Positions 1 through 20,500 of a stretch of DNA of 64,000 nucleotides are shown here, in pieces; within the stretch, counting starts at the first letter, position 1; every line of letters starts with the position of its first letter. A program made the position numbers and the translations under genes. Source of the DNA: Naegleria gruberi (lineage: Eukaryota); NCBI GenBank assembly GCA_000004985.1, contig GG738872.1. One strand, 5' to 3'. A model generated the notes under the pieces. The model had not been told where the DNA came from, ran no database searches, and saw nothing but the letters and a program-made list of their open reading frames with translations.

Positions 1-472
1 ACCCAAACCCAAACCCAAACCCAAACCCAAACCCAAACCCAAACCCAAACCCAAACCCAAACCCAAACCCAAACCCAAACCCAAACCCAAACCCAAACCC
101 AAACCCAAACCCAAACCCAAACCCAAACCCAAACCCAAACCCAAACCCAAACCCAAACCCAAACCCAAACCCAAACCCAAACCCAAACCCAAACCCAAAC
201 CCAAACCCAAACCCAAACCCAAACCCAAACCCAAACCCAAACCCAAACCCAAACCCAAACCCAAACCCAAACCCAAACCCAAACCCAAACCCAAACCCAA
301 ACCCAAACCCAAACCCAAACCCAAACCCAAACCCAAACCCAAACCCAAACCCAAACCCAAACCCAAAAACCCAAACCTAAAAACCCAAACCCAAACCCAA
401 ACCTAAAAACCCAAACCTAAAAACCCAAACCTAAAAACCCAAACCTAAAAACCCAAACCTAAAAACCTAAAA
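1..472. repeat. Terminal telomere array: (CCCAAA)n on the + strand, i.e. (TTTGGG)n G-strand running 5'->3' toward the chromosome end. About 61 perfect copies (1-367), then proximal variant units CCCAAA+CCTAAAAA (368-472).
   Basis: A perfect 6-bp periodicity starts at base 1. The C-rich strand reads inward, as expected for a left chromosome end. The array degenerates toward unique sequence at ~473. Confidence 0.95.
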
Positions 473-1168
473 AATATTTAAGTCCAGACCCAATGTTTCA
501 AAGTTCAAACCCTAGCCCAATTTATTGATTGTTATATCATTCGATTGTAAATGATGAGTAGAACAATGTATTATATTTAGTTTTTCAATTTATAAAATAT
601 TAACTTTGTAAATAATGTAAGATTAAAAATTTGTAAAATGAAACCATAGGAAGAATGATAATTTCAAAATCCTTTAGTGAGATTATATAGTAAATATCAT
701 CATTAACAACATTTATAATCACTTTCATATCAAATTTCAAAAGTTCAAGTCTGTAGATATAAAAGTATTGAGTGAAAAGGGAAGTAGTGAGGTACAATAG
801 GTCAACTATAACTTTTGAGTTTCTCATCAAAACATATTAAATCCTGACATGAAAATGTTCCATTTGATTAGTAAACATCGAATATCAAATTTATTTTAAC
901 TTTCATATTTAAAGATTTCTTCCCTCAATCACACATATGGTCAACTTGTATGAAAAGGTGGAAATCTTGAAAAAGGACCACCTATTGAAACTTTACCATC
1001 ATGATGTAGATGGTCTATAATGATGTACAATTCAATTTCATATCATAAGAATCAGAAATGGTACCATGGGAATGTAAATGTTGATTTTATAAAGTTGACT
1101 TTAAGGAAAGACAAGTCAGACCAACTCTATCAAATATATCACTTCAATCAATAAATTATATATGAAAA

Positions 1169-4100
1169 NNNNNNNNNNNNNNNNNNNNNNNNNNNNNNNN
1201 NNNNNNNNNNNNNNNNNNNNNNNNNNNNNNNNNNNNNNNNNNNNNNNNNNNNNNNNNNNNNNNNNNNNNNNNNNNNNNNNNNNNNNNNNNNNNNNNNNNN
1301 NNNNNNNNNNNNNNNNNNNNNNNNNNNNNNNNNNNNNNNNNNNNNNNNNNNNNNNNNNNNNNNNNNNNNNNNNNNNNNNNNNNNNNNNNNNNNNNNNNNN
1401 NNNNNNNNNNNNNNNNNNNNNNNNNNNNNNNNNNNNNNNNNNNNNNNNNNNNNNNNNNNNNNNNNNNNNNNNNNNNNNNNNNNNNNNNNNNNNNNNNNNN
1501 NNNNNNNNNNNNNNNNNNNNNNNNNNNNNNNNNNNNNNNNNNNNNNNNNNNNNNNNNNNNNNNNNNNNNNNNNNNNNNNNNNNNNNNNNNNNNNNNNNNN
1601 NNNNNNNNNNNNNNNNNNNNNNNNNNNNNNNNNNNNNNNNNNNNNNNNNNNNNNNNNNNNNNNNNNNNNNNNNNNNNNNNNNNNNNNNNNNNNNNNNNNN
1701 NNNNNNNNNNNNNNNNNNNNNNNNNNNNNNNNNNNNNNNNNNNNNNNNNNNNNNNNNNNNNNNNNNNNNNNNNNNNNNNNNNNNNNNNNNNNNNNNNNNN
1801 NNNNNNNNNNNNNNNNNNNNNNNNNNNNNNNNNNNNNNNNNNNNNNNNNNNNNNNNNNNNNNNNNNNNNNNNNNNNNNNNNNNNNNNNNNNNNNNNNNNN
1901 NNNNNNNNNNNNNNNNNNNNNNNNNNNNNNNNNNNNNNNNNNNNNNNNNNNNNNNNNNNNNNNNNNNNNNNNNNNNNNNNNNNNNNNNNNNNNNNNNNNN
2001 NNNNNNNNNNNNNNNNNNNNNNNNNNNNNNNNNNNNNNNNNNNNNNNNNNNNNNNNNNNNNNNNNNNNNNNNNNNNNNNNNNNNNNNNNNNNNNNNNNNN
2101 NNNNNNNNNNNNNNNNNNNNNNNNNNNNNNNNNNNNNNNNNNNNNNNNNNNNNNNNNNNNNNNNNNNNNNNNNNNNNNNNNNNNNNNNNNNNNNNNNNNN
2201 NNNNNNNNNNNNNNNNNNNNNNNNNNNNNNNNNNNNNNNNNNNNNNNNNNNNNNNNNNNNNNNNNNNNNNNNNNNNNNNNNNNNNNNNNNNNNNNNNNNN
2301 NNNNNNNNNNNNNNNNNNNNNNNNNNNNNNNNNNNNNNNNNNNNNNNNNNNNNNNNNNNNNNNNNNNNNNNNNNNNNNNNNNNNNNNNNNNNNNNNNNNN
2401 NNNNNNNNNNNNNNNNNNNNNNNNNNNNNNNNNNNNNNNNNNNNNNNNNNNNNNNNNNNNNNNNNNNNNNNNNNNNNNNNNNNNNNNNNNNNNNNNNNNN
2501 NNNNNNNNNNNNNNNNNNNNNNNNNNNNNNNNNNNNNNNNNNNNNNNNNNNNNNNNNNNNNNNNNNNNNNNNNNNNNNNNNNNNNNNNNNNNNNNNNNNN
2601 NNNNNNNNNNNNNNNNNNNNNNNNNNNNNNNNNNNNNNNNNNNNNNNNNNNNNNNNNNNNNNNNNNNNNNNNNNNNNNNNNNNNNNNNNNNNNNNNNNNN
2701 NNNNNNNNNNNNNNNNNNNNNNNNNNNNNNNNNNNNNNNNNNNNNNNNNNNNNNNNNNNNNNNNNNNNNNNNNNNNNNNNNNNNNNNNNNNNNNNNNNNN
2801 NNNNNNNNNNNNNNNNNNNNNNNNNNNNNNNNNNNNNNNNNNNNNNNNNNNNNNNNNNNNNNNNNNNNNNNNNNNNNNNNNNNNNNNNNNNNNNNNNNNN
2901 NNNNNNNNNNNNNNNNNNNNNNNNNNNNNNNNNNNNNNNNNNNNNNNNNNNNNNNNNNNNNNNNNNNNNNNNNNNNNNNNNNNNNNNNNNNNNNNNNNNN
3001 NNNNNNNNNNNNNNNNNNNNNNNNNNNNNNNNNNNNNNNNNNNNNNNNNNNNNNNNNNNNNNNNNNNNNNNNNNNNNNNNNNNNNNNNNNNNNNNNNNNN
3101 NNNNNNNNNNNNNNNNNNNNNNNNNNNNNNNNNNNNNNNNNNNNNNNNNNNNNNNNNNNNNNNNNNNNNNNNNNNNNNNNNNNNNNNNNNNNNNNNNNNN
3201 NNNNNNNNNNNNNNNNNNNNNNNNNNNNNNNNNNNNNNNNNNNNNNNNNNNNNNNNNNNNNNNNNNNNNNNNNNNNNNNNNNNNNNNNNNNNNNNNNNNN
3301 NNNNNNNNNNNNNNNNNNNNNNNNNNNNNNNNNNNNNNNNNNNNNNNNNNNNNNNNNNNNNNNNNNNNNNNNNNNNNNNNNNNNNNNNNNNNNNNNNNNN
3401 NNNNNNNNNNNNNNNNNNNNNNNNNNNNNNNNNNNNNNNNNNNNNNNNNNNNNNNNNNNNNNNNNNNNNNNNNNNNNNNNNNNNNNNNNNNNNNNNNNNN
3501 NNNNNNNNNNNNNNNNNNNNNNNNNNNNNNNNNNNNNNNNNNNNNNNNNNNNNNNNNNNNNNNNNNNNNNNNNNNNNNNNNNNNNNNNNNNNNNNNNNNN
3601 NNNNNNNNNNNNNNNNNNNNNNNNNNNNNNNNNNNNNNNNNNNNNNNNNNNNNNNNNNNNNNNNNNNNNNNNNNNNNNNNNNNNNNNNNNNNNNNNNNNN
3701 NNNNNNNNNNNNNNNNNNNNNNNNNNNNNNNNNNNNNNNNNNNNNNNNNNNNNNNNNNNNNNNNNNNNNNNNNNNNNNNNNNNNNNNNNNNNNNNNNNNN
3801 NNNNNNNNNNNNNNNNNNNNNNNNNNNNNNNNNNNNNNNNNNNNNNNNNNNNNNNNNNNNNNNNNNNNNNNNNNNNNNNNNNNNNNNNNNNNNNNNNNNN
3901 NNNNNNNNNNNNNNNNNNNNNNNNNNNNNNNNNNNNNNNNNNNNNNNNNNNNNNNNNNNNNNNNNNNNNNNNNNNNNNNNNNNNNNNNNNNNNNNNNNNN
4001 NNNNNNNNNNNNNNNNNNNNNNNNNNNNNNNNNNNNNNNNNNNNNNNNNNNNNNNNNNNNNNNNNNNNNNNNNNNNNNNNNNNNNNNNNNNNNNNNNNNN

Positions 4101-5508
4101 NNNNNNNNNNNNNNNNNNNNNNNNNNNNNNNNNNNNNNNNNNNNNNNNNNNNNNNNNNNNNNNNNNNNNNNNNNNNNNNNNNNNNNNNNNNNNNNNNNNN
4201 NNNNNNNNNNNNNNNNNNNNNNNNNNNNNNNNNNNNNNNNNNNNNNNNNNNNNNNNNNNNNNNNNNNNNNNNNNNNNNNNNNNNNNNNNNNNNNNNNNNN
4301 NNNNNNNNNNNNNNNNNNNNNNNNNNNNNNNNNNNNNNNNNNNNNNNNNNNNNNNNNNNNNNNNNNNNNNNNNNNNNNNNNNNNNNNNNNNNNNNNNNNN
4401 NNNNNNNNNNNNNNNNNNNNNNNNNNNNNNNNNNNNNNNNNNNNNNNNNNNNNNNNNNNNNNNNNNNNNNNNNNNNNNNNNNNNNNNNNNNNNNNNNNNN
4501 NNNNNNNNNNNNNNNNNNNNNNNNNNNNNNNNNNNNNNNNNNNNNNNNNNNNNNNNNNNNNNNNNNNNNNNNNNNNNNNNNNNNNNNNNNNNNNNNNNNN
4601 NNNNNNNNNNNNNNNNNNNNNNNNNNNNNNNNNNNNNNNNNNNNNNNNNNNNNNNNNNNNNNNNNNNNNNNNNNNNNNNNNNNNNNNNNNNNNNNNNNNN
4701 NNNNNNNNNNNNNNNNNNNNNNNNNNNNNNNNNNNNNNNNNNNNNNNNNNNNNNNNNNNNNNNNNNNNNNNNNNNNNNNNNNNNNNNNNNNNNNNNNNNN
4801 NNNNNNNNNNNNNNNNNNNNNNNNNNNNNNNNNNNNNNNNNNNNNNNNNNNNNNNNNNNNNNNNNNNNNNNNNNNNNNNNNNNNNNNNNNNNNNNNNNNN
4901 NNNNNNNNNNNNNNNNNNNNNNNNNNNNNNNNNNNNNNNNNNNNNNNNNNNNNNNNNNNNNNNNNNNNNNNNNNNNNNNNNNNNNNNNNNNNNNNNNNNN
5001 NNNNNNNNNNNNNNNNNNNNNNNNNNNNNNNNNNNNNNNNNNNNNNNNNNNNNNNNNNNNNNNNNNNNNNNNNNNNNNNNNNNNNNNNNNNNNNNNNNNN
5101 NNNNNNNNNNNNNNNNNNNNNNNNNNNNNNNNNNNNNNNNNNNNNNNNNNNNNNNNNNNNNNNNNNNNNNNNNNNNNNNNNNNNNNNNNNNNNNNNNNNN
5201 NNNNNNNNNNNNNNNNNNNNNNNNNNNNNNNNNNNNNNNNNNNNNNNNNNNNNNNNNNNNNNNNNNNNNNNNNNNNNNNNNNNNNNNNNNNNNNNNNNNN
5301 NNNNNNNNNNNNNNNNNNNNNNNNNNNNNNNNNNNNNNNNNNNNNNNNNNNNNNNNNNNNNNNNNNNNNNNNNNNNNNNNNNNNNNNNNNNNNNNNNNNN
5401 NNNNNNNNNNNNNNNNNNNNNNNNNNNNNNNNNNNNNNNNNNNNNNNNNNNNNNNNNNNNNNNNNNNNNNNNNNNNNNNNNNNNNNNNNNNNNNNNNNNN
5501 NNNNNNNN
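1169..5508. other. Assembly gap (4340 N)
   Basis: Uninterrupted run of n characters. Confidence 1.
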
Positions 5509-5872
5509 ACTTTCTAATTTCTCTCAAAGCAACAGTACCTGGCTTATATCTATGTGGCTTTTTAGGAGTACGTGTCTTGCTAATAGTTGATGGTTGTTTT
5601 ATAGCTTTTCTTGGTGCTTTGCCTCCAGTTGATTTTCTTGTTGTTTTTCTTCTTGCTAAAATAGCAGCTTCGGAAGTATTTTTACTTTTTCTAGTATTTC
5701 CTTCGGCTAAATCGGAAGTATTGGAAGAAGAAGGAACATCTGCAGATGAAAAATTTGCAACCACATCAGAAGCGACAGTAGATGAAGAGTTTGTGGTATC
5801 AGATACCATTGAATCATCAGTAGTTTCAGTAATAGAAGAATGAGAAGTAGTATTTCCAGTGATGAGAGTCAT
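5509..5872 (-). CDS. Histone H3-family variant, 5' part only (the CDS runs into the assembly gap). It has a ~95-aa Ser/Thr/Asp-rich N-terminal extension before the H3 tail.
   Basis: The minus-strand frame reads [13 protein letters not shown]...[51 protein letters not shown] and then hits the N run. This matches canonical H3 [12 protein letters not shown] and [17 protein letters not shown]. The first ATG is at 5872; the track start at 5923 is a GTG. Confidence 0.8.
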
Positions 5873-5998
5873 TTTTTTAATTTTGAAAAGGTTATTCGGA
5901 GCATCAATAATTTGTACTCTCACAAAATAACTCTTTCAAATTTTGACCATCTAAAATAATTTCTAAAAAATATTAACCAACCGACAGAACTCTCAACA

Positions 5999-6478
5999 AT
6001 GCCAAAACGATCAGTTACTAAAATCATACCAATGTATGAAAGTATCTACGATTTACCAGTTGTCATGGTTTGTATGAAAGGAGAGAAAATCTCCGATGAA
6101 GCTTTTATTAATCATTTGTATTTTCATTCGAGTGTCTTTTATCCAACCGTTAATGATTGTACCAAAACCATCAACACAATCATGCACGAACTTGAAAATG
6201 TTATAGCAATTAATGATGATTTTATTATTGATGAAATTCCAAATCCTATGGATTTAAAAGAAAAGCTCCAACTCTCAAGAAAAGCAAATAGATTAGCTAT
6301 TTATTCATTAAAGACAATGATTATGATGGAATCAAAGATGTTTAATGCTTTGTTTCAAAAGAAACCATCTATGAATCAATTAAACAAGGCTCACAAATTC
6401 CAAAATGTAATTCATTTGGAAATTGATGAAGAAGATGTTTCCGAAAATGAAATGACCATTTGGAAAAATAAAGAATAA
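5999..6478 (+). CDS. Hypothetical protein, 159 aa, no recognisable domain
   Basis: ATG-initiated ORF, divergent from the H3-like gene across a 126-bp spacer. The composition looks protein-like. No motif was recognised. Confidence 0.45.
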   Translation: MPKRSVTKIIPMYESIYDLPVVMVCMKGEKISDEAFINHLYFHSSVFYPTVNDCTKTINTIMHELENVIAINDDFIIDEIPNPMDLKEKLQLSRKANRLAIYSLKTMIMMESKMFNALFQKKPSMNQLNKAHKFQNVIHLEIDEEDVSENEMTIWKNKE

Positions 6479-6537
6479 TTTTATTAATATAAATTAATAT
6501 CCTTAATAAATATTGTTTATTAATTAATTATATAAAA

Positions 6538-9303
6538 TTAATCATCAATATAGTCATCTAAAGGGTATATATAATCATTAAAGTAACGTAAAACCATACT
6601 TTCATCAACAAAGTTATCGAAAGGTTCCCATGTTGATTGTTTGTAACCATAACCTTGCCATTTTACAAGGTAATTGAAATATTTTGGTAATAAAAGATCA
6701 GAATCAATATCTATATCTTTTTCGATTAATTGATGGTCTAAAATCTCATCAACTACAAATATATCATCTGTTTGAGTATCTTGTAAATCTGAAGAATCAG
6801 CTGAAGAATCATCTGACATATCTGCCCATCTCCTTTTGGTACCTCCTTTCTTTTCCTTCTTGGATCTAAAAGAGGAACATTTCTTATATTCTTCTGGTGT
6901 CATTTTAAATTCAGAGAAGAACTTTTGCAAATCTTCAGGATTTAATGGGATGGTTACACCATCAAACCAATGATGATCTTTCAAATAACGATTCACATGT
7001 GAAACCAAATCTTCAAAAAACACATCCCTTTCTGAACTATTCCAATAACTATTTAGTAATATCTTGAATTTTGTAATAACCCGACTTTTTACCTTCCAAT
7101 AATTTTTGTTGAATTGTTTTTTATCTTCCTCTGTAACAATTTCAAGATCTGAAAATGCCATAAGAGATCTATAGATAGATCCCATGAAATTAGTAGTTTC
7201 TGTTAATGCAACCGTCTTTCCAAAAAGAAACTTCAGTTTCGGTATGTTGTCAATTAGCCAAGTCTTGCATTTGAAATCAACTCTTGTTTGTGGAAGTGAT
7301 TTTCTTTGAGAAATTATATTCTTGTTTGTTTGAGGAATATTCATAAATCCAACGCTCTCATCAATACATTCATCTCTCATAAATAGATATTTGAAAGGTA
7401 CGCAACCATTAGGATTGGATTTTCTAGATGTTATATATGAAGATGGTGACAATTCAACATTCAAAATATTATGAAAAGTAGTTTCCAATGTATCAGATGA
7501 TGAAAATCCATAATCTTGAATAGATCCTTGAACATATTGAAATATCATCTGCCGATGATGTACAGTATCTGCAAGGTACCTCTCTGGTAGTTGGTTGAAT
7601 ATTTTGAAAGCATATCTTTCATATGATTTAATTGAGCGCTTACTGACATGTCCTAGCATGAATGAAATTGCACTCTTTGTTTGCTCTTGCACAATATGGT
7701 TTCGAATAATATCAACCAACATGTTTTCTACCACAATACCAGATCTACCAGCACGTGCACAATACATGACATTTAAAATTCTCTTGGTGATATTTCTAAT
7801 ATATTCTGATATTCCATTTGAACAACATTGAGATTTAGATTGTTTTTTGAAAAATAAAAATTCTTTCACTACATCATTCTTAAATGTGAATTTACCATCT
7901 GAAATGAATTTTTCCCAATTAGAATTAAAGTTGGCAAATATCTCAGAACGAGTGTACCACAAATAATATAATAAAATGAATGATGAACAGAGAGTATGAT
8001 TCTGCTTTCCAAATATTGACACATTCCTTGATGAAGTGGTTGTACGCTTGTCTTTCTTCACTTCCATAGAAGTGTGAATAACGAACCATTTATCATCATT
8101 AAGATAATATTCAACTTTTTGAAATTTTACATCTTCAAGTCTTATCCAAATAAGAGAATCTCCTCTCATTCCAGTAGCTCGAATAACATGCATGATGGCA
8201 ACATCAGTAAGATCTTCAACTTTTGTCAAATCAGCAGCATAGGTAACTTTGTAGACCTCAGAAAACATCATTGGAGCAACTTTGTACACTTCACACCCAT
8301 ATAATCGAATCAAGCCCATTGTTGTTTGTTGAATAGCTTCCTTAAATAGAATGACTGGACTTTCACCGAATTTAGGATGTCTTTTTATGAATTTGTTCAA
8401 TCCATACACAAAGCACCCTTTCATTGTCTTATGCGAAAAACCACTAGCTCGACTGAATATCAAAAATCTAAGGTAGGTTATCTTTTCAATAGGGAATGGT
8501 TTCGGTTGAATCTTTGACCACGCTGTTTTGCCTTTGATTTGTTCTTTCCAAAACGACACATAGACAATTCCTGAATAAGCTTCAAATTGTCTAGTATTGA
8601 TATGCTTATGAAGCTTCATTACAGTGACAACCTTGGAAATATCTTCATCCAAATCATCAACAATTGTTAAATCTAAATTTGAATCAATTTCCTCATTGAA
8701 CTCTGGTCGAATAACAGCAGATTTCTTTTTTTTTGGAGTATAGCTTGCCACAAGGAGATCTTCAACATCATAATCAATTAAGCTAGCTTCCAAATTGTCA
8801 TTGATCTCTTCTAACATCTTTTCCTTCTCTTTCGGTGATGATGATTCTACATTACGAATAAGGGATTCTTTTCGAATTTCTTCATCAGTCATTTCGGGAG
8901 GGTTATCCATCTTGTTCATTCTTTCAATCTCTTGTAAAATATCTGACACAACATCCTTTTGATGCATATAAGGCTGTATCATTGTGTCTAAATCTTTAAT
9001 TGATTGAGCAACACCAATAAAATTGTTATTATGATTTAATAATGCCATTATGTGATGAAATGACTGCATAGTAAACTCAGCATCCAAACAATAAGTAACT
9101 CCGTTATAATCAACATTGATTGATTTGGAGCCAATATACTCCTTGTTGTTTAGCAAATCATTCATTTGATAAACTCGCGATGATGAGTTCTTTGATACTA
9201 AGGCGCTCTCATCCTGTTGAGTTGGTGGGAGTTCACCGGTTGGTGAATGGTTGTTGTTGGTGCAATCACTTAAATGAGAGCTTGTAGATGATGATGGAAG
9301 CAT
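6538..9303 (-). CDS. Tyrosine recombinase (Crypton-like catalytic core) fused to a C-terminal chromodomain, 921 aa
   Basis: Tyrosine-recombinase motifs read by eye: box I IRATGMRGDSLIWIRLEDV (Arg), then ARAGRSGIVV (Arg), then ISFMLGHVSKRSIKSYERY (His...Tyr nucleophile). The C-terminal 73 aa (about 6580-6759), FVVDEILDH...YFNYLVKWQGYGYKQSTWEPFDNF...VLRYF, fit the chromodomain consensus (Y.VKWkGy...tWEP). No RT or RNase H motifs are present in the sequenced part. Confidence 0.65.
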   Translation of the reverse strand: MLPSSSTSSHLSDCTNNNHSPTGELPPTQQDESALVSKNSSSRVYQMNDLLNNKEYIGSKSINVDYNGVTYCLDAEFTMQSFHHIMALLNHNNNFIGVAQSIKDLDTMIQPYMHQKDVVSDILQEIERMNKMDNPPEMTDEEIRKESLIRNVESSSPKEKEKMLEEINDNLEASLIDYDVEDLLVASYTPKKKKSAVIRPEFNEEIDSNLDLTIVDDLDEDISKVVTVMKLHKHINTRQFEAYSGIVYVSFWKEQIKGKTAWSKIQPKPFPIEKITYLRFLIFSRASGFSHKTMKGCFVYGLNKFIKRHPKFGESPVILFKEAIQQTTMGLIRLYGCEVYKVAPMMFSEVYKVTYAADLTKVEDLTDVAIMHVIRATGMRGDSLIWIRLEDVKFQKVEYYLNDDKWFVIHTSMEVKKDKRTTTSSRNVSIFGKQNHTLCSSFILLYYLWYTRSEIFANFNSNWEKFISDGKFTFKNDVVKEFLFFKKQSKSQCCSNGISEYIRNITKRILNVMYCARAGRSGIVVENMLVDIIRNHIVQEQTKSAISFMLGHVSKRSIKSYERYAFKIFNQLPERYLADTVHHRQMIFQYVQGSIQDYGFSSSDTLETTFHNILNVELSPSSYITSRKSNPNGCVPFKYLFMRDECIDESVGFMNIPQTNKNIISQRKSLPQTRVDFKCKTWLIDNIPKLKFLFGKTVALTETTNFMGSIYRSLMAFSDLEIVTEEDKKQFNKNYWKVKSRVITKFKILLNSYWNSSERDVFFEDLVSHVNRYLKDHHWFDGVTIPLNPEDLQKFFSEFKMTPEEYKKCSSFRSKKEKKGGTKRRWADMSDDSSADSSDLQDTQTDDIFVVDEILDHQLIEKDIDIDSDLLLPKYFNYLVKWQGYGYKQSTWEPFDNFVDESMVLRYFNDYIYPLDDYIDD

Positions 9304-9705
9304 TTTTTTGAGAGAAAATCCCCGAAATTTCCATTAAGGCAACTTTACAAAGTGAGCCCTCTTTGAGTATTCATAAATATAGGCAATTATCGTGCAAGAA
9401 GGCCTTTGTGGCCTTCCTGCATCAATATCTCATCCAAGTAATAATATTTATATATATAAAATTGGCAAACAGCATTCAATTTATTCAAATATTGATGTAG
9501 ACAGGTAAAAATGTCAATAATGTCATTTTTTTTACCTTACTGAAAAATGACCTGTTTTTGAAAAGCTCCCATTCAATGAGTTCAGTGAATTAGAACTGAA
9601 TTTCTGTACGATAATGTAGTAATTGAAGTCTATTACGATATCTGAAAAATTCAATATCCCAATATTTAAACAACAAATCTGGGTAATGTAATTAGCCTGC
9701 AGTCT

Positions 9706-9731
9706 CCCAAACCCAAACCCAAACCCAAACC
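9706..9731. repeat. Interstitial telomere-repeat tract, cccaaa x4.3, same orientation as the terminal array
   Basis: Exact string cccaaacccaaacccaaacccaaacc, followed directly by gene-relic sequence. Confidence 0.95.
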
Positions 9732-9732
9732 T

Positions 9733-10215
9733 ATTGCTCGCCTATTAGAAGAACACTATGGAACTAGTTTGAATATTAAATGCAATACCAAGTATTTAAT
9801 TTCATCAGAAACTGATTACATTTCAATTTACAGATTATATACAGATACTGATGTTGATTGGTAAGTAACCTAAACGAGTTAGATATAATAATTGTTCAAA
9901 ATAGGTTGTTTGTGTTAGCAGTTCCTCAATGGAATTACATTAGGTCAATTGTTATTGCTGTAATTTGTGCTATTGTTGGTGCCACATTCATTGTCACAAC
10001 AGGTGTAGCCATTTCCATCTTCATTTCAGTCAGATTAGTGAAACCATTTTACAATTTGATTGATTTATTCGAAAGTGTCTCTCATATGGATTTGGATAAT
10101 TTAGAAATTCATGATTCCAAATTTACAGAAGTGAAACAGTTACAAACTCATTTCAAAACCATGACAGACAGAATCAAACTTTACAGAGCTTTCATACCAT
10201 CACATTTACAAGTAA
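9733..10215 (+). pseudogene. Relic of a receptor-type cyclase-like gene. It covers the end of the extracellular domain, the TM helix and the HAMP-like linker only. It is truncated 5' exactly at the telomere tract and loses homology 3' before the cyclase-homology domain.
   Basis: Translation IARLLEEHYGTSLNIKCNTKYLISSETDYISIYRLYTDTDVDW / (44-nt gtaagt...atag, 9861-9904) / LFVLAVPQWNYIRSIVIAVICAIVGATFIV...VKPFYNLIDLFESVSHMDLDNLEI...IKLYRAFIPSHL is colinear with internal residues of the paralogues at 14482-17128 and 53385-55883. There is no start codon and no N-terminal ~430 codons. A stop follows soon after HL. Confidence 0.8.
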
Positions 10216-10547
10216 TTTTGTCTCATTCATTTTATTAATGTTACTAAGCTCTCTCTCCATATTTGAATTGCCAGCTTGTAGTATTAAGCGGAGAGAATCT
10301 CCCGTTTAGAATAAGAAACGGCCTGAATCCCGTTCATCCCGTTGCCCGTCTCACCGTTTATTTGTATCAACTCATACTGCTACATATTTCATATTGCATT
10401 GATTCAAATCCAATTTCAGAACAAAAACGAATGTATTTGATAGAATTTGTAAAGAGTTCTTGTTATTTTGGGGTTAGTCTTTGATTCCTCTGTATTCAAA
10501 ATGCACCATTGAGAGAAAACGGAAGCTTGTGTAATAAAAGGTTCATT

Positions 10548-13500
10548 CTACCAATTACTGTTGTTTATTAAGNNNNNNNNNNNNNNNNNNNNNNNNNNNN
10601 NNNNNNNNNNNNNNNNNNNNNNNNNNNNNNNNNNNNNNNNNNNNNNNNNNNNNNNNNNNNNNNNNNNNNNNNNNNNNNNNNNNNNNNNNNNNNNNNNNNN
10701 NNNNNNNNNNNNNNNNNNNNNNNNNNNNNNNNNNNNNNNNNNNNNNNNNNNNNNNNNNNNNNNNNNNNNNNNNNNNNNNNNNNNNNNNNNNNNNNNNNNN
10801 NNNNNNNCATTATTTGTAATGACAGAGGTAATGACTAATGATATCAAAGTAATACAAGCAGGTAATAAAAGTGTTGGCATGTTCATCAATCTCAAAATCT
10901 CAGTCAATGCCTCAGCAACTCCACTTTGAGTAATTGCTGCCGCAATTCCAAAAGATGCTCCAACCAATGTCACTAATCTCCATTCCACACAATCAACTGC
11001 TCTCGTTGGTGTTATCAATCCAAATGCAACGACTGCACAGAATGTCACAAGTGTACATTGAACCATTGGAAATCCAGCAATGGCGCATCCAATCATTGCT
11101 AAAAAGAATGGGAAAATCCAATGTTCCCACCACCACAAATCTAAAATGATTTTAGTGAAGGGAATTCTGAATAGAAATGGTTTTTGTTTGAATTGGTTGT
11201 AATCTGGTGAGATTTCGTTAAATCTTGTAATGAGATAGAAATCCTTTGAATTGTCATGATTATTATGGTAGAAAACACTTTTACCCAAAATTAGAATAGT
11301 ATCACCACAATATACTGTTTTGCAATTGACGTGTGAATCCTTATCGTTGGTTTCTTTAGTATCAATTGAGGAGGAACCAACTTGTCTGATGGCTAATACT
11401 TTGACTTGATATCTTCTTTCGAATTCCAAATAAGTTTCTCCTAAACATGGATTTGAAGCTCCAATAACAACCTGGAAGAATTCAGGTTCATTTTCTTGAA
11501 TTTCAGATTGATTAGTTTTAGATTTTTCATTGGAGAGAGCTGCATCTCCATAATTCTTCTTGATATTATGATGTAATTGATTAGTGACTGGATTTTCAGC
11601 TTGTGGTGATGTTGTTGGTGAATCAATTAAATGGTCTTGAGATGTTGAAGAAGCCACGCAACTGCTCTGTGAAATTCTTCCTTCTTCCATTGGAGATTCA
11701 ACACTCAAAAAGGAAGTAGTGCTTTGACCTGTTGCCATTTTAGGTTCTTCTTTTTGGTTGACTGATTCAGAACTTTCAAAAGTTGATTTTTCAATTTCAG
11801 AACCATCATACACAAGTGAATGCAAACGTAAAATTAATTGAGGAGCTCCTTGGAAAACCAAAATATCAGAACTTTCCAATTTTAGATCTAAAGGAACTGG
11901 TGAAATTTTTTCAAGCCCAGCAACAGTTTCGTTTGTTGCTGGAATAATTGTATTCGAAGAAGTAGAGCTATTTGAAGAGTTTGTGGATTGCTCTGGACTT
12001 TCCTTAGGTTCTTCTACCTTAATTTCAATAGATTCTCCATTGGAAATTACATTTGGTTCGCTTGAAGTTGTTGGTTGACTTGAAGATTGTACACTGCTCA
12101 ATTCAACTTGATTGGTTGATTTCTTTTCTCTCAAAATTTCAATCAAATCCAAGTTGCCTATTCCCAACTCTGACATGGCTTTGACTTTGGTCTTTCCATT
12201 CAAAGTTTCAAATAATGTTTTACCTTTCGAATACTTTGGTTGAGAAGCCAAATATTCCATCTTGACAATGGTAACGAAAGTTTCCGAATGTTCTCTCACA
12301 ACTTCTCTTGCACGTTCCTTTTTACTTTTATGAGCAAAAGTAACCTTTGAAGCATTAAACTTTGAAGTCACTCCTTCATTAGGAACAATCCACAATGTAT
12401 AAGTGCAACAATAAATAATTGTAATGAAACATAAAATGGCGCCAACATAAACAAACTCATAAAAGGATAAAGGAGTGTAACCATATTGAGTATAGATACC
12501 ATTTGCAACAATACTTGCTGAAGTTCCAATATATGTCAACAATCCACCTCCATTTGTTGCGAATAAAAGTGACATGAGAAATTTGGTATGTGAAAGTTTG
12601 TGTGTCCTTGCCCATTCCATAATGATAGGAATTCCTGTGGCCACAACTGGAGTATTCGATACAAATGCACTAAAAATGGTAAAAACAAAACAAATTCTTA
12701 AAGTTGGTGGTATGAGTGAAATAAAATTGAGAAATTTGTTTTTGGAATTTTTGAATTTCAATGGGGAACCAAATAAAAGTCTGGCAAATTTCAAAACTAG
12801 GGTATTTTCACTTAATGGTTTGACGATTGGGAAGAGGAGAGCAACGATGAGAGTACCAGTGTTGGAAAAACCACTTAAGGCATCTGTAACACTGACAATA
12901 CCTGCCAGATTAAAAATGACAAGTGTCATAACCACAATAAAGTAAGGTCTCCAAAGAGAAACAACCAGACAGACTAGCATTAGGATGACCATGCATAGTA
13001 CGAACCATAATTTCCATGAATTCCATGAAAATGCAACTACAGGTGACGTGGATCCACAAATATTATTGATGGATGAGCTTGTTAACACTGTATCTATGCT
13101 CACAGATTGATTCAGCTGTTGAATGGTAGTAAAGTTGTAGTTTAGATTCTTAGAAGGAACTTGTGCTTGTAAATCGTTGAAAGCATTCACCAATTCTTGA
13201 CTAAACATTCCACTTTCAATCTTGTTTCTAATATCAGCAAGGTCGAGTTTGACTAGAAACCATTGAATTGCATAGGAATTTGTAAACAACTCTGGAATAT
13301 CCAAGTATTTGGTAGAATTCATGAATGCATTCTTACTTGTCGTTCCATTTATATGAAAAACCATCTTTTCATATGTCAAATCCATTCCACTTTTTGTTTG
13401 AATGACAGAAATTGGATATTCTTGAAGGAGAGAAGTTCTGGAAGGAAGAAAGAGTGAATTTTGATATTTTGTGGAAAGTAAGTTATTATGGATGATTCTA

Positions 13501-14481: not shown

Positions 14482-17128
14482 TTACATTTTGCTTTCACAT
14501 TGTCTTAGTAAATGAAGTGTAGGTCCATCATGTGGATTTTGTTGATAGAAAGTTTGAAGAATCGAATAAGCTTGTTTGTAATCTTGTTGTAGGAATAATC
14601 TGGATGCTTGTAGATAATCATGCCATTGAGATTGTTTGTTCTTTTCTTGGAGTTCGTACATCCACTTTGTTTTTGAATCAGTTTAATCAACACATTCGAA
14701 ATTTAACACAAAAAGTTATTGGAAAGGTCAAAAACAGAAAAGGACTTACCTCATCGTCGTTCACTTTCAAAGAAGATCCCAATTCATAGATATTTGTTAG
14801 CACGCCAGTATTTGGAGTCTTGTATTCGTCAGTTTTTCCATTGAGCGAGTTTAAATTAGTTTCGTCTAGTAATTCTTTGGAATCTACATATCTGATTTGG
14901 AACAATTGTTCACATTTTTCCTTAATCTTCTCACTTACTACAATACTAACATTCAGTTGAATTGCAATTTGAGTCAATTGATCCAAATTTTGTTTGGCGC
15001 TCGAAATTATTGTAAAGTTTTTCAATTCGTTCGTTCCAATATTTCCACAATAGGAAGATTGTGATAAAACTGCAATTTTAAATGACATTAAATCCAATAA
15101 TTGTGAATTCTTCTTGAAACTGTTTAATAAGGTTGAGGCAGCGACAACTCCTTTTTCTTCATGATTCGTCTGATTATTCGAAGAGTTAAACGAAATGGTG
15201 ATTGATTCATTTTCAAAGTTTCCAACGTTTCCTGTCAAACTTCTACTCACACTATTAATCTGTTCAAAAATATCTGACATTAGCTCAATAGTTTCGTTTG
15301 GATTCATATTTTGCAACCATTCAGTAAATCCATTAAAATGAATCTGGACGAAAGTTACCTTCTTCTGTTCCATATACAAGGAAAACTTGCTTCTATCATT
15401 CTTATATACTTTCCTTGAGGATCTTGCTTTATGAGAAATTCCTTTACTGGAATTAGAACTTCCCACTGATTGAGTTTCCTGACTTGACATGTTGTGCGAA
15501 GATCCTCCGTAGACTTTAGTTCTGGAATTCTTTCGGAAAGATTCGTCTACTTCACTGTCTGATTCTTGGATACCATCTACATTTTCAATTTCTGAAAGTA
15601 AGTGAGCTGGAATAAAACTCTTGTAAAGTTTGATTCGGTTGACCATGGAAATGAAATGTCCTTGTAATTGTTTCACTTCTGAGAATGAACTTGGAATAAT
15701 GTGAAGTTGATCCAAATCCATATTAGCAACACTTTCGAATAACTCTATCAAATTATAAAACGGCTTGACAACTTTTAAGGAAACAACAACTCCCAAGACT
15801 AAACCAACCGAAATGATGAGAACACTACCAATCAATGAGCAGATAATTGCAAAAATTGTCGATCCTAAATAATTCCATTGAGGGACACTCAACACTAATA
15901 TCCAATCAATTTTTGAGCTAGTACACAATCTATATATGGAAATGTATTGTCCACTACGTTCGAGAACTTGCATTTCATTGCAAGTTATTTTAGTCCAATC
16001 ATTCGAATAATGATCAAGAATAGCTTGAGAAATTGCGTTGATTTTGGTATCTGAAACATCGGTTGGTGTTTTTCTATCTAATGATCCATCTGATTTCCAA
16101 TCTGAAATTGTAACTTCCTCTCTGTCAACTATTTCCCATAAACTTTACAATAAAAATTTATGTAACTTACCTGCAATCAAATAAGCAGTTTCAGTTTCCA
16201 CAATAAATCCTAAAGATCCAGTAATGGATGCAATTCTTTCTTTCAAAAAGTCTGAAATCGATGACACTGTCAAATCATTTGCTTGATAATAGTGAAAATT
16301 GTGTCCGTTAGGAAGAGGAAGTTTCTTATTTACGACACAATTCATGGAAGTGATGAATGTGTATTGAGGCATTGAAATGTCAGCATAACTCAATGTAAAA
16401 ACTTGTTGACCTGGATTAGCATCACAGACCTCAACGAGATAGCTCACATCGAATGGCTTGTTGGTTTCGTCTGGATTAGAATTTCTAACACACTGTTCGT
16501 GATTGGTAATGTTGTCGCAATAATAGATTAATTGAGCTGTTGATGTGATATTAAAAGTGGCCAAATAATCTCCCCACTCAATTGATCCAAAGCATGTTTT
16601 ATCTGTACCTCCCACATATGAGGAAATTGTAATTCCCTTCAAATGTTTTTGAGATGACTAATGGCAATTTGAAGGTATTTCATTAATTTTCATGAATTTT
16701 TCATATTTTGAATATGAGAATAGGAATCAATAAACTTTGCTTACCTTGTAGCCTGCAAACATAATCCTCTCCAAATAATCGAAATTTCCATACGAATAAT
16801 CATCAGTTGCCAATTGTTGTTTAATGGCCTCATTCAATACATTAACTTCTTTGAGTGTTTGCTCTGCATATTTGACAATGGTTGAAAACTCTTCGTCTCT
16901 CACTGTTGATGATAAACTGACAACTGTTGGAGAAAAACTTGCCAACCAAATGGCAGATAGGATCAAAACACTGAGGAAGAGTAAACCAGATACCATGACA
17001 ATCATACAAAATTTGATGGAAGTTCCCTTAGTTGAGCCTCCTGTGTAGGAACTTGTTTCTTGATTCTTATCCATTATGGCTTGTTTATCCTCTTGTGAGG
17101 TTGGTGTTACCTTGTTCTTTAATTTCAT
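14482..17128 (-). CDS. Receptor-type class III cyclase-homology protein (TM, extracellular domain, TM, HAMP-like, degenerate CHD, TPR-like tail), 810 aa, 4 exons
   Basis: Exons are 17128..16745, 16657..16171, 16128..14750 and 14664..14482, with introns of 87, 42 and 85 nt (gtaagc/gtaagt donors, AG acceptors). Splicing restores colinearity with the intronless paralogue at 53385-55883 (YK|SSQKHLKGITISSYVGG vs YKSEQKFHKGLTYSTYIGD; VNDDE|WMYELQEK vs NIDEWMYELQEK). The total of 2433 nt is in frame. Confidence 0.85.
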
Positions 17129-17533: not shown

Positions 17534-20500
17534 TTAATCTGATTCGCTGTAATATGGAGAGGCATAGGATGGTGTTGATCTAGCACCAGTCTTGTAGGCA
17601 AATCTAGAGTTATTGCTGTGAGTGAAAGGACGATTGGATCTGATAACATCTCTTTCTTGATTTCCAATAAGAGTATTATTCATAATGTCCATTCCAGAAC
17701 GAGCTTGGGCAGATGGTCTTTTAATGGTTGGTCTTTGGACACCAGAGTTCATTGATCCATAAACCACAAAGCCCAAAACTGCAATAATAAGAGAAAGGAT
17801 GATATAAGTCAAATAACCAGCAGATTCATCTTCGGTATTGTCAGTGTGGACGTGTTCTCTGACTGGTTGACGGGCTTCATTGGATACAAATCTAACAGTA
17901 ATAGGAGTAGTAGTGAGAGTGTATGACTTGGCATTTTCACCAAAGTTGACCTTGACAGACAAGTTAATATCTTGTGTTGACAAGTGCTTCAATTCACCGT
18001 TAAGGAAAGAGTCACGTCTTGGTTTGATTAAACATTCATACTTATCACCAACTTTTTCAGTTCCAACAACTTCCAACCAGCTTTGAGTAGATTCACATTG
18101 TACATTATAATTACGTCTTACTCTGGAATCGTGTGGGAATTTGACTTCTTGACTTGTGTTATCCAAAAGATGGAGTGGAATACGGGTTGGTACTTGTTTC
18201 ACTGGATCAACACCAGAACTAAGTTCAATACTTGAAAGGGAAATCTTAGCTTGAGCAATTCTGACAATGTTAACTTGGATTTGGGTGGTAGTTCTTCCTG
18301 ATTTAAGAGTAACAGTTGCTGAACCAACCTTGTGAGCAGTTCCTACACCGTTCAAATCAACACTAATAACACTAGAATCAGAGCTTTCCCATTTACCAGC
18401 CTTTTCAGAAACAAAAGTAACAGAGTCACCAACGTGAAGTTTGGCAGTTGAGGAGAGTGTGTCAACAACACTTGAAACAACGCTAATTCTGCAATAATAT
18501 GGTTGCTTCAATTCTGGAGCACTCAATTCAACAGTTGTATTACCAAGAGAATTAGAGTAGACAACAATGGCTTCCTTTTGAGCATCAACCTTTACACTAA
18601 CAATATCATGAATATTCATACGGACGTTAATATCAATACCACTAACAGAAGCAAACTTTTCACCGCGAATACCAAGAGCAGAGAGTGGAATTTCAAACTC
18701 ACTACCAATTGGGACTTGGAAGTCATAATCAAATGATTTAGTTTGGAGTTCACTCAAAGACATTGCCAAATAGTGTGGATTTTGAACAGCAACCTTTTGA
18801 GCAACAGTTTGACCGGTGGAAATTTCTTCAACAATAACAACAGAGATACCCTCAGATTCACGAGTAACAATATCACCGTTCTTACTGACAGCAATAAGAT
18901 TATCATATTCATCAGTCTTGGCAATAGTGTATTTTTGAACTGATAAATTATCCTTATTAGTTCTCAAACGGAAAGTAGCAGATCTTGGAGCAAGAATGAG
19001 ATCCTTGTGTGGGAAATCTAATAATTTCAACTTGTCATCAACTTGAATATCAGACTTGGTTGTATGGTGCCAGCTTGAAAGTTGTGGATGTTGGAATGAG
19101 GCACTAGCTGAGATTTGAGTCTTACCAATCTTAGAGCCAGTAATAAAAACAGAGTGACCAGTTTGGCTTTGTGGATAATTGATAATTGAAACTTCTTGTT
19201 CAGCAGAAGAGACAGAGACTTGGAAGAATGGAGATTGCATAAAGAGAGGAGACAAGAGTTGCTTATTATCATAGAGACCATAAACAGGTACAGGGATATG
19301 ATGTCCTTCAAAAACAAAGAGTGGTTGTGGAAGTTTGATACCTACAAGTTGAACAACACGAACTGGAACAGTCTTTCTAGCATAAACAACTGAATTCTTG
19401 ATGAGACTAATCTTTTCGACAACAAGTAATTGTTCACCATAAGTAACACCAGTAACAATTCCTCTAGCATCAACAGAGGCAAACTTGTGATCTTCCTTAA
19501 ACTTGAAAATTGTAGCAATACTTGGTGTTTCAATTGGTCCTCCAGTAACCTTAACTTGGAATTTAGCACCTGGAATCAAGACAAGCTCTGGTGGATTAAC
19601 TCTCATTGGTTCATAAACATTGACCATAAATGGAACACTATAAACTCTTCTTCCATCACTATTAAGAACACTAGCAACAAGTTTAACAACACCAACTCTT
19701 CTACCAGTCAAAACATATTCATCTGGATTAGATTCAGATTGTTTGAGTGAGATTGTGTTTGGAGTGTCAACTTCAATAGAAGTTTGCATGGCATAGTGTT
19801 GAGAAGCTGGGAAATTGGCACCAGTTTCATCGGAAACGCTCAATTTAACAGTAACATAATTGTCAACTTCGACAAATCTTTCACCATCTAAACCAACATG
19901 GTGAGCATCAGCAACTTTAACAAAACTACTAGCAGCTGGGCTGAGTTTGGAGAAGGTATCAAAAACATCAACTCTAACATAACCTGGAACAAGACCAACA
20001 AGTTCAGCAGTTGAACCCTTTGGAGCCAATGTTGCTACGTCAGTATTGTTATGAGAAAAGTCATATCTACCAGAACCACCTGTAGCTTGGAGAGTGAGAC
20101 TAACTTTACGATTTCTGAATAAAAGATAACTAGCAGGATTGAGGTAAATATTTGGAGCAATTCTGAGTTCAATTTCATCCTCTAATGGTTTAGAGAATGC
20201 TGCAATAGCTGAATTCATGATAGAATAAGAGACGTACTTCTTGACTTCATCCTTATTATATCCAATAATTTGTCCTCTCAAGTTTACAGAACCTTCCTTT
20301 TCATAAATATCCAACAATCTGTGTCCTGGATATACTTCCTTATTGGAAATTTTGGCAATATCATGGTGACTGAGTTCCCATTCATCTTGTAAAGTGGAGG
20401 TGGTAACGAAGAGATTTTCTTCACTGTCATAGGCGTTCATTACAGCTGGAACAGTTTGATTATTTCTAACACTGTAAACTCTAATAATGTGAGAGGAAAT

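Follow-up and report, generated by a model that had tools for sequence, protein, structure and literature searches.

Genetic elements that target telomeres are known mainly as retroelements, such as HeT-A/TART in Drosophila, TRAS/SART in Bombyx, TATE in Leishmania and the terminal Penelope-like elements. Yeast Y' elements are copied between chromosome ends by telomere-repeat-primed recombination, and Cryptons are presumed to use a circular intermediate that integrates by site-specific recombination. Here, we analyzed a stretch of 64,000 nucleotides from Naegleria gruberi (contig GG738872.1, assembly GCA_000004985.1; hereafter the window), the left end of which carries, between the telomere and a short internal telomere tract, a terminal block (473-9705) encoding a tyrosine recombinase. 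Taking our observations together, this block is probably one copy of a so far undescribed, Heterolobosea-wide set of telomere-associated, Crypton-like recombinase elements, added onto a healed chromosome break.

Among the systems already described, TATE of Leishmania (Viannia) braziliensis encodes a tyrosine recombinase and lies in or next to the telomeric hexamers at many chromosome ends, with repeats on both sides; it is a DIRS-like retroelement with reverse transcriptase (RT) and RNase H, which forms tandem clusters and occupies a fixed position in GGGTTA (PMC6681497, PMC2696322). A dedicated tyrosine recombinase family is also found in the endogenous nimaviruses of crustaceans, which are flanked by host telomere-type repeats. 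These are viral genomes of 200-360 kb in (TAACC)n, and their recombinase has arm-binding and zinc-finger domains (PMC10871703). Crypton recombinases have been domesticated, and Crypton-derived host proteins act at centromeres (Ndc10) and telomeres (WOC) (PMC3212892). For N. gruberi, TTTGGG was put forward as a candidate telomere repeat from scaffold ends (PMC3622300), while the N. fowleri genome paper does not mention telomeres (PMC6831594). Our full-text literature searches turned up no telomere-associated recombinase family described from Naegleria or Willaertia, and the Crypton literature examined holds no report of Cryptons from Naegleria.

Results

The left scaffold end is made of (CCCAAA)61, with the C-rich strand running 5' to 3' inward as expected for a left chromosome end. 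The repeats of this terminal array (1-367) are perfect at 2-367, and then decay into a 14-bp variant, CCCAAACCTAAAAA, of which repeat family analysis found about six copies at 368-472. By scanning the window with a telomeric 18-mer and allowing up to two mismatches, we found that the sole non-terminal telomere tract in the 64 kb is (CCCAAA)4.3, 26 nt long, at 9706-9731, whereas the chance expectation is 0.00. It is oriented like the terminal array and forms the proximal boundary of the block. The same TTTGGG repeat also caps contigs of N. lovaniensis, N. fowleri and Willaertia magna. Two runs of N interrupt the region, at 1169-5508 (4340 N) and 10573-10807 (235 N), and the internal tract together with its two junctions sits within the single contig 5509-10572.

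Given that this key contig is flanked by two gaps, that the telomere contig measures merely 1168 bp and that repeats often mislead scaffolding, a contig chimera or an erroneous scaffold link in the Sanger draft might have created the tract, or the linkage between the block, the telomere and the gene relic that adjoins the tract. However, the tract and both junctions are within one contig, and a chimera formed through telomere repeats would need a block that ends in C-strand repeats, which is no natural chromosome end. Moreover, the long-read assemblies of N. fowleri, N. lovaniensis and W. magna, which have no gaps, show the same architecture. Such an artefact is therefore highly improbable.

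The recombinase gene (6538-9303, minus strand) is transcribed toward the telomere and was identified by its open reading frame (ORF), Pfam and fold. It encodes 921 aa with a C-terminal chromodomain (residues 849-902, at 6598-6759; Pfam Chromo, E 4.7e-10, 39.7 bits against a cut-off of 25.1), and its match to Pfam Phage_integrase is weak. The recombinase core (residues 224-575, at 7579-8634) was modelled with a predicted local distance difference test score of 87.9, and the model has the two-domain fold of a helical core-binding domain and a catalytic domain. The catalytic set consists of R380, K417, R517-x-x-R520, H552 and Y561, an Arg replacing the first His of H-x-x-R. When aligned, every full-length family member keeps the R-K-R-R-H/W-Y set, and the motifs GLRGDS, KDK, RSxRSG, G[HW] and Y-x-R recur. 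Together, the predicted fold and the active-site residues indicate that the protein is a bona fide tyrosine recombinase of the Cre/Xer/lambda Int type.

Searching 1.84 billion representative proteins exhaustively with HMMER, we recovered about 25 proteins that share residues 200-600, and all the named ones are from Heterolobosea, that is N. gruberi, N. lovaniensis, N. fowleri or W. magna. With a word-indexed protein search, the full ORF returned itself, as a 100% identical predicted N. gruberi protein from a 413-kb scaffold, and one metagenome relative, and the core alignment returned two matches. PDB sequence searches with the family profiles found none, fold comparison alone being successful; a viral fold library gave generic phage integrases only, and two scans of metagenome contigs with the family alignments found nothing. 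The closest relative is a metagenome protein (P0002) that is 33-35% identical, varying with the alignment used, and has a chromo-like C-terminus.

We then surveyed 15 loci that encode relatives (L001 to L015), the named hosts of which are all heterolobosean. TTTGGG tracts lie within 6 kb of the recombinase gene in 11 of the 15 loci, and in 9 of these 11 the gene is directed toward the telomere. In N. lovaniensis (L002), the gene is aimed at a contig end that carries more than 400 nt of (TTTGGG)n, 5.6 kb away. In N. fowleri ATCC 30894, it stands at two contig ends (L013 and L014, with the same 520-aa product in both), 82 bp from telomere arrays of 2.5 kb and 1.6 kb, respectively, and a read-assembly contig (L015) has a telomere junction identical to these two. 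All four W. magna copies are within 3.4 kb of contig ends, and three of them have TTTGGG downstream at 0.26-2.8 kb: L006 is 264 bp from a 960-nt array, while L004 and L005 have tracts 1.35 kb and 2.8 kb downstream. The fourth one, L003, is 118 bp from the contig end and has an internal C-strand tract 2 kb past the gene. Two independent metagenome contigs (L008 and L009) have a (GGGTTT)n end 2 kb downstream of the gene, another read-assembly contig (L011) begins with a C-strand tract 0.6 kb upstream of it, and four short contigs (L001, L007, L010 and L012) have no tract. These contigs end in long telomere arrays, and this pattern is more than contigs breaking at repeats. As a rough inferred figure, the chance that the three copies of N. 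fowleri and N. lovaniensis would be so near contig ends is about 1e-5, with a null built on the contig numbers and genome sizes given in Table 1 of PMC6831594.

In the window and in L013, L014 and L006, an internal and a terminal tract flank the block. Proximally, the two N. fowleri ends are unrelated, L013 carrying a PAS/cyclase gene there and L014 another gene. Their shared block starts exactly at the internal tract GGGTTTGGGTTTGGG, an identical 15 nt in both (L013 7000-7014 and L014 8897-8911), and ends at an identical telomere junction; the two copies are 93% identical in the initial 700 bp and 99.4% identical in what follows. The block is 2.73 kb long in L014, and L013 carries an additional long interspersed nuclear element (LINE). 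This is the layout of the window, with unique DNA followed by an internal tract, a recombinase block and the telomere. In W. magna, L006 has a 14-nt G-strand tract (7770-7783) located 4.8 kb proximal to the telomere, with the recombinase gene in between, and L003 is its mirror image, with the tract at about 4377-4397. By estimate, the chance of such internal tracts in AT-rich DNA is below 1e-4 per locus. In L005, the sequence goes on for another 0.55 kb after an internal tract of 35 nt, and the same junction is present in L004; these two loci have paralogous flanks on either side of different recombinase genes. Between species, we looked for synteny and for non-coding conservation and found neither, the recombinase being the sole shared component. 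Together, these data place the elements at the extreme chromosome end, with a telomere-repeat remnant on the centromere side and the telomerase-maintained array distally. Judged from these sequences, the blocks appear to be telomere-specific in location, with repeats on both flanks.

The first-pass annotation of this DNA, made from the letters alone, had reported the terminal (CCCAAA)n array over 1-472, the second tract of 4.3 repeats in the same orientation, and a block containing an H3 variant, a 159-aa ORF and a recombinase-chromodomain ORF, with the warning that its contigs are linked across N gaps only. All these elements are borne out by the present data, including the recombinase call, which the fold and the catalytic residues support, and the position of the gaps on either side of the key contig. 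That the internal tract could be an assembly artefact, a possibility it raised itself, is unlikely as detailed above. Its proposal of a discrete block that became attached via telomere repeats is strengthened as well, since the layout recurs at two N. fowleri ends and in L006 and L003 of W. magna and the family is telomere-associated in four species, and the non-telomeric copies that it suggested looking for were not seen among the assembled genomes.

With regard to how such blocks move, the N. fowleri gene has in-frame stops, and the telomere cuts it before the RSxR, H and Y motifs, which makes both copies pseudogenes. Because this shared pseudogene is truncated by the telomere and the 15-nt tract is identical, the N. 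fowleri blocks were copied without their own recombinase. Hence, recombination or break-induced copying is indicated, by sequence comparison, as the way in which such blocks spread in N. fowleri. Of the two routes considered at first, namely (a) break-induced-replication capture of another subtelomere and (b) site-specific integration of a circular element into telomere repeats by its own recombinase, route (a) thus gains support in N. fowleri from the dead recombinase and the 99.4% identity. The two routes are not separable for the N. gruberi copy, the sequence of which would fit recombinase integration as well as break-induced copying.

These observations bear on an alternative explanation, according to which a healed end copied the subtelomere of another chromosome by break-induced replication primed in telomere repeats, as part of an ordinary subtelomeric patchwork, the recombinase being a passive passenger, that is a transposon fossil in a harmless location. 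The near identity of the blocks at two N. fowleri ends despite a truncated, stop-bearing gene is what such a process would leave, and passive copying alone explains this pair. It would also fit L004 and L005, where paralogous flanks surround different recombinase genes and the telomere junction is common, and the landing of other transposons in the blocks, namely a pogo-like DDE_1 element in L002 and the LINE in L013. However, passive copying offers no account of why the one thing that terminal blocks of two genera have in common is a recombinase gene with its active site intact. A passenger would not be the lone conserved component in four species of two genera and in environmental relatives, with the active site intact in most full-length copies, and no non-telomeric genomic copy was seen in the assembled genomes. 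We thus regard the patchwork explanation as possible, although unlikely.

A different question is whether the gene belongs to the host. It could be a domesticated gene maintained at chromosome ends as a subtelomeric family, working in telomere recombination or as a chromatin-binding end protein by analogy with Ndc10 and WOC. The telomere-adjacent position and the catalytic residues retained over deep divergence would fit such a role, as would the chromodomain of the N. gruberi protein, the H3-like variant gene found as a neighbour in two genera and the known cases of domesticated Crypton recombinases (PMC3212892). Yet both N. fowleri copies are pseudogenes, frameshifts seem to have split two of the four W. 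magna copies into three frames each, and the constraint on the L005/L006 pair is weak, with a ratio of nonsynonymous to synonymous substitution rates (dN/dS) of 0.53. In addition, copy number and neighbours vary between species, without synteny. The decayed copies of N. fowleri and W. magna fit a mobile element rather than an essential gene, and we find domestication improbable.

To which class a mobile element of this kind would belong was judged from its gene content. Neither an RT-sized ORF nor an RT match in Pfam belongs to the blocks of L002-L010, L014 and the metagenome contigs, and in the window the block could be read only outside its 4340 N. The only RT gene, in L013, is that of the separate LINE insertion with a 13-bp target duplication. 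Because no RT belongs to the blocks as sequenced, the family appears Crypton-like in gene content and not DIRS/TATE-like. A retroelement of the DIRS/TATE/VIPER type was rejected, there being no RT or RNase H in the blocks and no terminal repeats. Among 11 members, Pfam found neither GCR1_C (CryptonF) nor DUF3504 (CryptonA). NDC10_II, a Crypton-derived domain, gave sub-threshold matches in two members (23.9 and 16.3 bits against a cut-off of 26.3). The exact boundaries of the N. fowleri copies are direct TTTGGG repeats, namely the internal tract and the telomere, which homologous recombination could equally yield, the recombinase gene being dead.

Immediately after the internal tract, we found the relic of a transmembrane (receptor-like) gene on the plus strand, consisting of an exon of 43 codons (9733-9860), a 44-nt GT-AG intron (9861-9904) and an exon of 101 codons (9905-10209). 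The frame starts at 9733 with IARLLEEHYG...DVDW and continues after the intron with LFVLAVPQWNY... to 10209. Its intact paralogue (14485-17128, minus strand; four exons, about 849 aa), delimited by ORFs, tblastx and Pfam, aligns with it by tblastx at 16021-15902 (relic 9742-9861) and at 15901-15599 (relic 9906-10208), with E 2.5e-45 and a nucleotide identity of 74-80% in the better part. Overall, the relic spans 16030-15599 of the paralogue, or about residues 337-480, so that about 144 of some 850 codons are left. The paralogue codons upstream of this part, about 336 in number, have no counterpart in 1-10572, and the some 370 codons after 15598 have none in 10210-10572. The relic is cut at both ends. 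Past 10209, the best intron model adds a 10-aa tail, and a 78-codon open frame in frame with the second exon (10245-10480, plus strand) has no similarity to the paralogue.

The relic and its paralogue differ by a dS of 1.7, with dN/dS 0.27, which points to an old divergence shaped by purifying selection. Because of this, and because the reading frame has stayed open, either the gene was truncated late in comparison with the duplication or the relic continues to be expressed. The first-pass annotation was right in placing an in-frame gene fragment at 9733, next to the tract and without upstream continuation, and in its colinearity with the paralogue; the missing part amounts to about 336 codons instead of the 430 it gave. 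Its break-and-healing account fared less well: it is drawn only from coding DNA abutting repeats at 9732/9733, and the 3' cut goes unexplained by a single break. Its cyclase label was also imprecise. The paralogue has an N-terminal transmembrane segment, an extracellular region, a second transmembrane segment, a HAMP-like linker, a degenerate cyclase-like region and a TPR-like tail. The tail matches ANAPC3/TPR in Pfam (E 1.7e-4), and no Guanylate_cyc or other cyclase domain is called by Pfam in this protein, the label having come from reading the sequence alone.

The 44-nt intron of the relic is located where the coding sequence of the paralogue is uninterrupted (15901/15902), which corresponds to an intron gain or loss between the two. 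A word-indexed protein search with the relic gave no matches and is uninformative on a near-identical parent gene, the relic's own paralogue in the window being missed too. The next gene, which starts right after the 235-N gap on the opposite strand, encodes a CitMHS transporter. In L013, the last chromosome-specific gene (1221-6806, plus strand) encodes an 1808-aa TPR/PAS/guanylate-cyclase protein and ends 194 bp before the tract. It echoes the N. gruberi relic, which may be a coincidence given the large cyclase families of Naegleria. The possibility that the tract-side gene of L014 is a truncated paralogue of this L013 gene was ruled out by comparison.

Next to the recombinase gene, the block contains an H3-like histone variant gene (5509-5872, minus strand; Pfam Histone, E 9e-4), of which the N-terminal 121 codons, including a 65-aa extension, are present before the gap cuts it. 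By tblastn, it is 56% identical to human H3 over 52 aa. It is transcribed divergently from the 159-aa ORF (5999-6478, plus strand), for which Pfam gave no match. In W. magna, a far more divergent H3-like gene (L003 2607-3086, minus strand) adjoins the recombinase gene, and in both species the H3-like gene is divergently paired with a small ORF. From sequence, this pairing hints at a small conserved cargo, and the H3-like gene may be either element cargo or a telomere-linked histone. Homology between the 159-aa ORF and the equivalently placed ORF of L003 was not retained, as the similarity is too weak (a 12-aa motif, E 0.015).

The remainder of the block is non-coding. Its distal part (473-1168) is tied to the rest only across the 4340-N gap, and has no ORF of at least 80 aa and no similarity to other loci. 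Its proximal end (9304-9705), upstream of the recombinase gene, holds a GC-rich perfect palindrome, GAAGGCCtttgtGGCCTTC, at 9398-9416 (GAAGGCC-tttgt-GGCCTTC), about 95 bp upstream of the start codon in surrounding DNA of 32% GC. This palindrome could act as a promoter element or as a site for binding or recombination. No matches came from scanning 1-11000 for Rfam families and tRNAs.

Several features of the related loci were observed along the way. The variant repeats at the telomere base are species-specific, with the 14-bp CCCAAACCTAAAAA in N. gruberi and the 9-bp TTATTGGGT in N. lovaniensis (L002, about 17590-17700). In N. lovaniensis, a pogo/Tc5-like DDE_1 transposase gene (L002 12026-13339, minus strand) separates the recombinase gene from the telomere. 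The LINE of L013 (7701-9596) is 5'-truncated and encodes an RT with the FADD motif, RNase H and a C-terminal zinc knuckle; it is flanked by a 13-bp target-site duplication, AAAGTTCAAAAAT, and L014 has no such insertion. L004 and L005 have a 0.9-kb distal segment in common, at the start of which L004 (12950-13100) has many degenerate TTTGGG-like motifs, which may be a decayed internal tract, while L005 (14450-14600) has unrelated A-rich sequence. The recombinase gene of P0002 is followed by a Tet/JBP dioxygenase gene (L001 5989-7074, minus strand); in fungi, such genes are companions of DNA transposons. Finally, a 213-bp sequence with 71% identity is found downstream of this recombinase/Tet pair (L001 7583-7795) and upstream of the recombinase gene in L008 (51-263), from the same sample, and could be a shared element terminus.

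Discussion

In this study, we described a terminal block of N. gruberi with a layout that recurs at chromosome ends of two genera. Several observations weigh against reading it as a copy of a telomere-associated recombinase element. First, in the window itself, the telomere contig (1-1168) is joined to the block by scaffolding alone, and the 4340-N gap conceals nearly half of the block. Second, no terminal inverted repeats or long direct repeats were found between the block ends, nor was a conserved terminal sequence or attachment-site motif found among the loci. Third, the N. fowleri copies share both the telomere-truncated pseudogene and the identical 15-nt tract, and the frameshifts of W. 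magna could be long-read assembly errors. Fourth, the databases hold one N. gruberi protein of the family, and the orientation toward the telomere is not universal, the genes of L003 and L011 reading inward. Lastly, the 3' truncation of the relic is unaccounted for by one break followed by healing. Despite these points, we favour a family of telomere-associated, Crypton-like elements.

Under this reading, telomerase would have capped a chromosome broken within a paralogue of the 17128-14485 gene, as suggested by the coding DNA that abuts the repeats at 9732/9733. The block would then have been joined through the capping repeats, leaving the proximal ones (9706-9731) as the internal tract while the distal array stayed a functional telomere. 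The first colonization of a telomere would be explained most simply if the recombinase had inserted a circular copy into (TTTGGG)n. The copy would thereby be left with repeats on either side, and tethering of the chromodomain to subtelomeric heterochromatin might help such an integration. Later on, spread between ends could have occurred by telomere-repeat-primed recombination or break-induced replication, with the internal tract as homology, as for yeast Y'. A bolder version is that the element is active, lacks RT and naturally targets the telomere array, and that the host may exploit blocks with their own distal telomere as back-up capping of healed or critically short ends, with the H3 variant and the chromodomain setting the terminal chromatin; this version we hold to be doubtful.

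If our reading is correct, a DNA-level, recombinase-only family residing at chromosome ends across a protist lineage would represent a new mode of telomere colonization, and would provide a natural telomere-repeat-associated Cre-like enzyme to study. It would also help to account for internal tracts and subtelomere mosaics in Naegleria, including the pathogen N. fowleri. On the practical side, the succession of internal tract, block and telomere offers sequence markers for finishing Naegleria chromosome ends.

Compared with known systems, the heterolobosean loci studied have no viral genes seen in them, which sets them apart from the endogenous nimaviruses. They resemble yeast Y' elements in being discrete terminal modules of several kb, with short internal tracts on the proximal side, at a subset of ends, but Y' encodes a helicase and not a recombinase, so that the likeness is in behaviour and not in ancestry. 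With Cryptons they appear to have in common a single recombinase gene and the lack of RT and terminal inverted repeats. They differ from them by the chromodomain fusion, the exclusively telomeric location and the absence of GCR1_C and DUF3504, and are likened to them by gene content rather than phylogeny. The closest precedent is TATE: although no RT gene belongs to the heterolobosean blocks themselves, and the comparison is one of architecture and not of recombinase sequence, both combine a recombinase gene with telomere repeats on both sides, in hosts that belong to Discoba.

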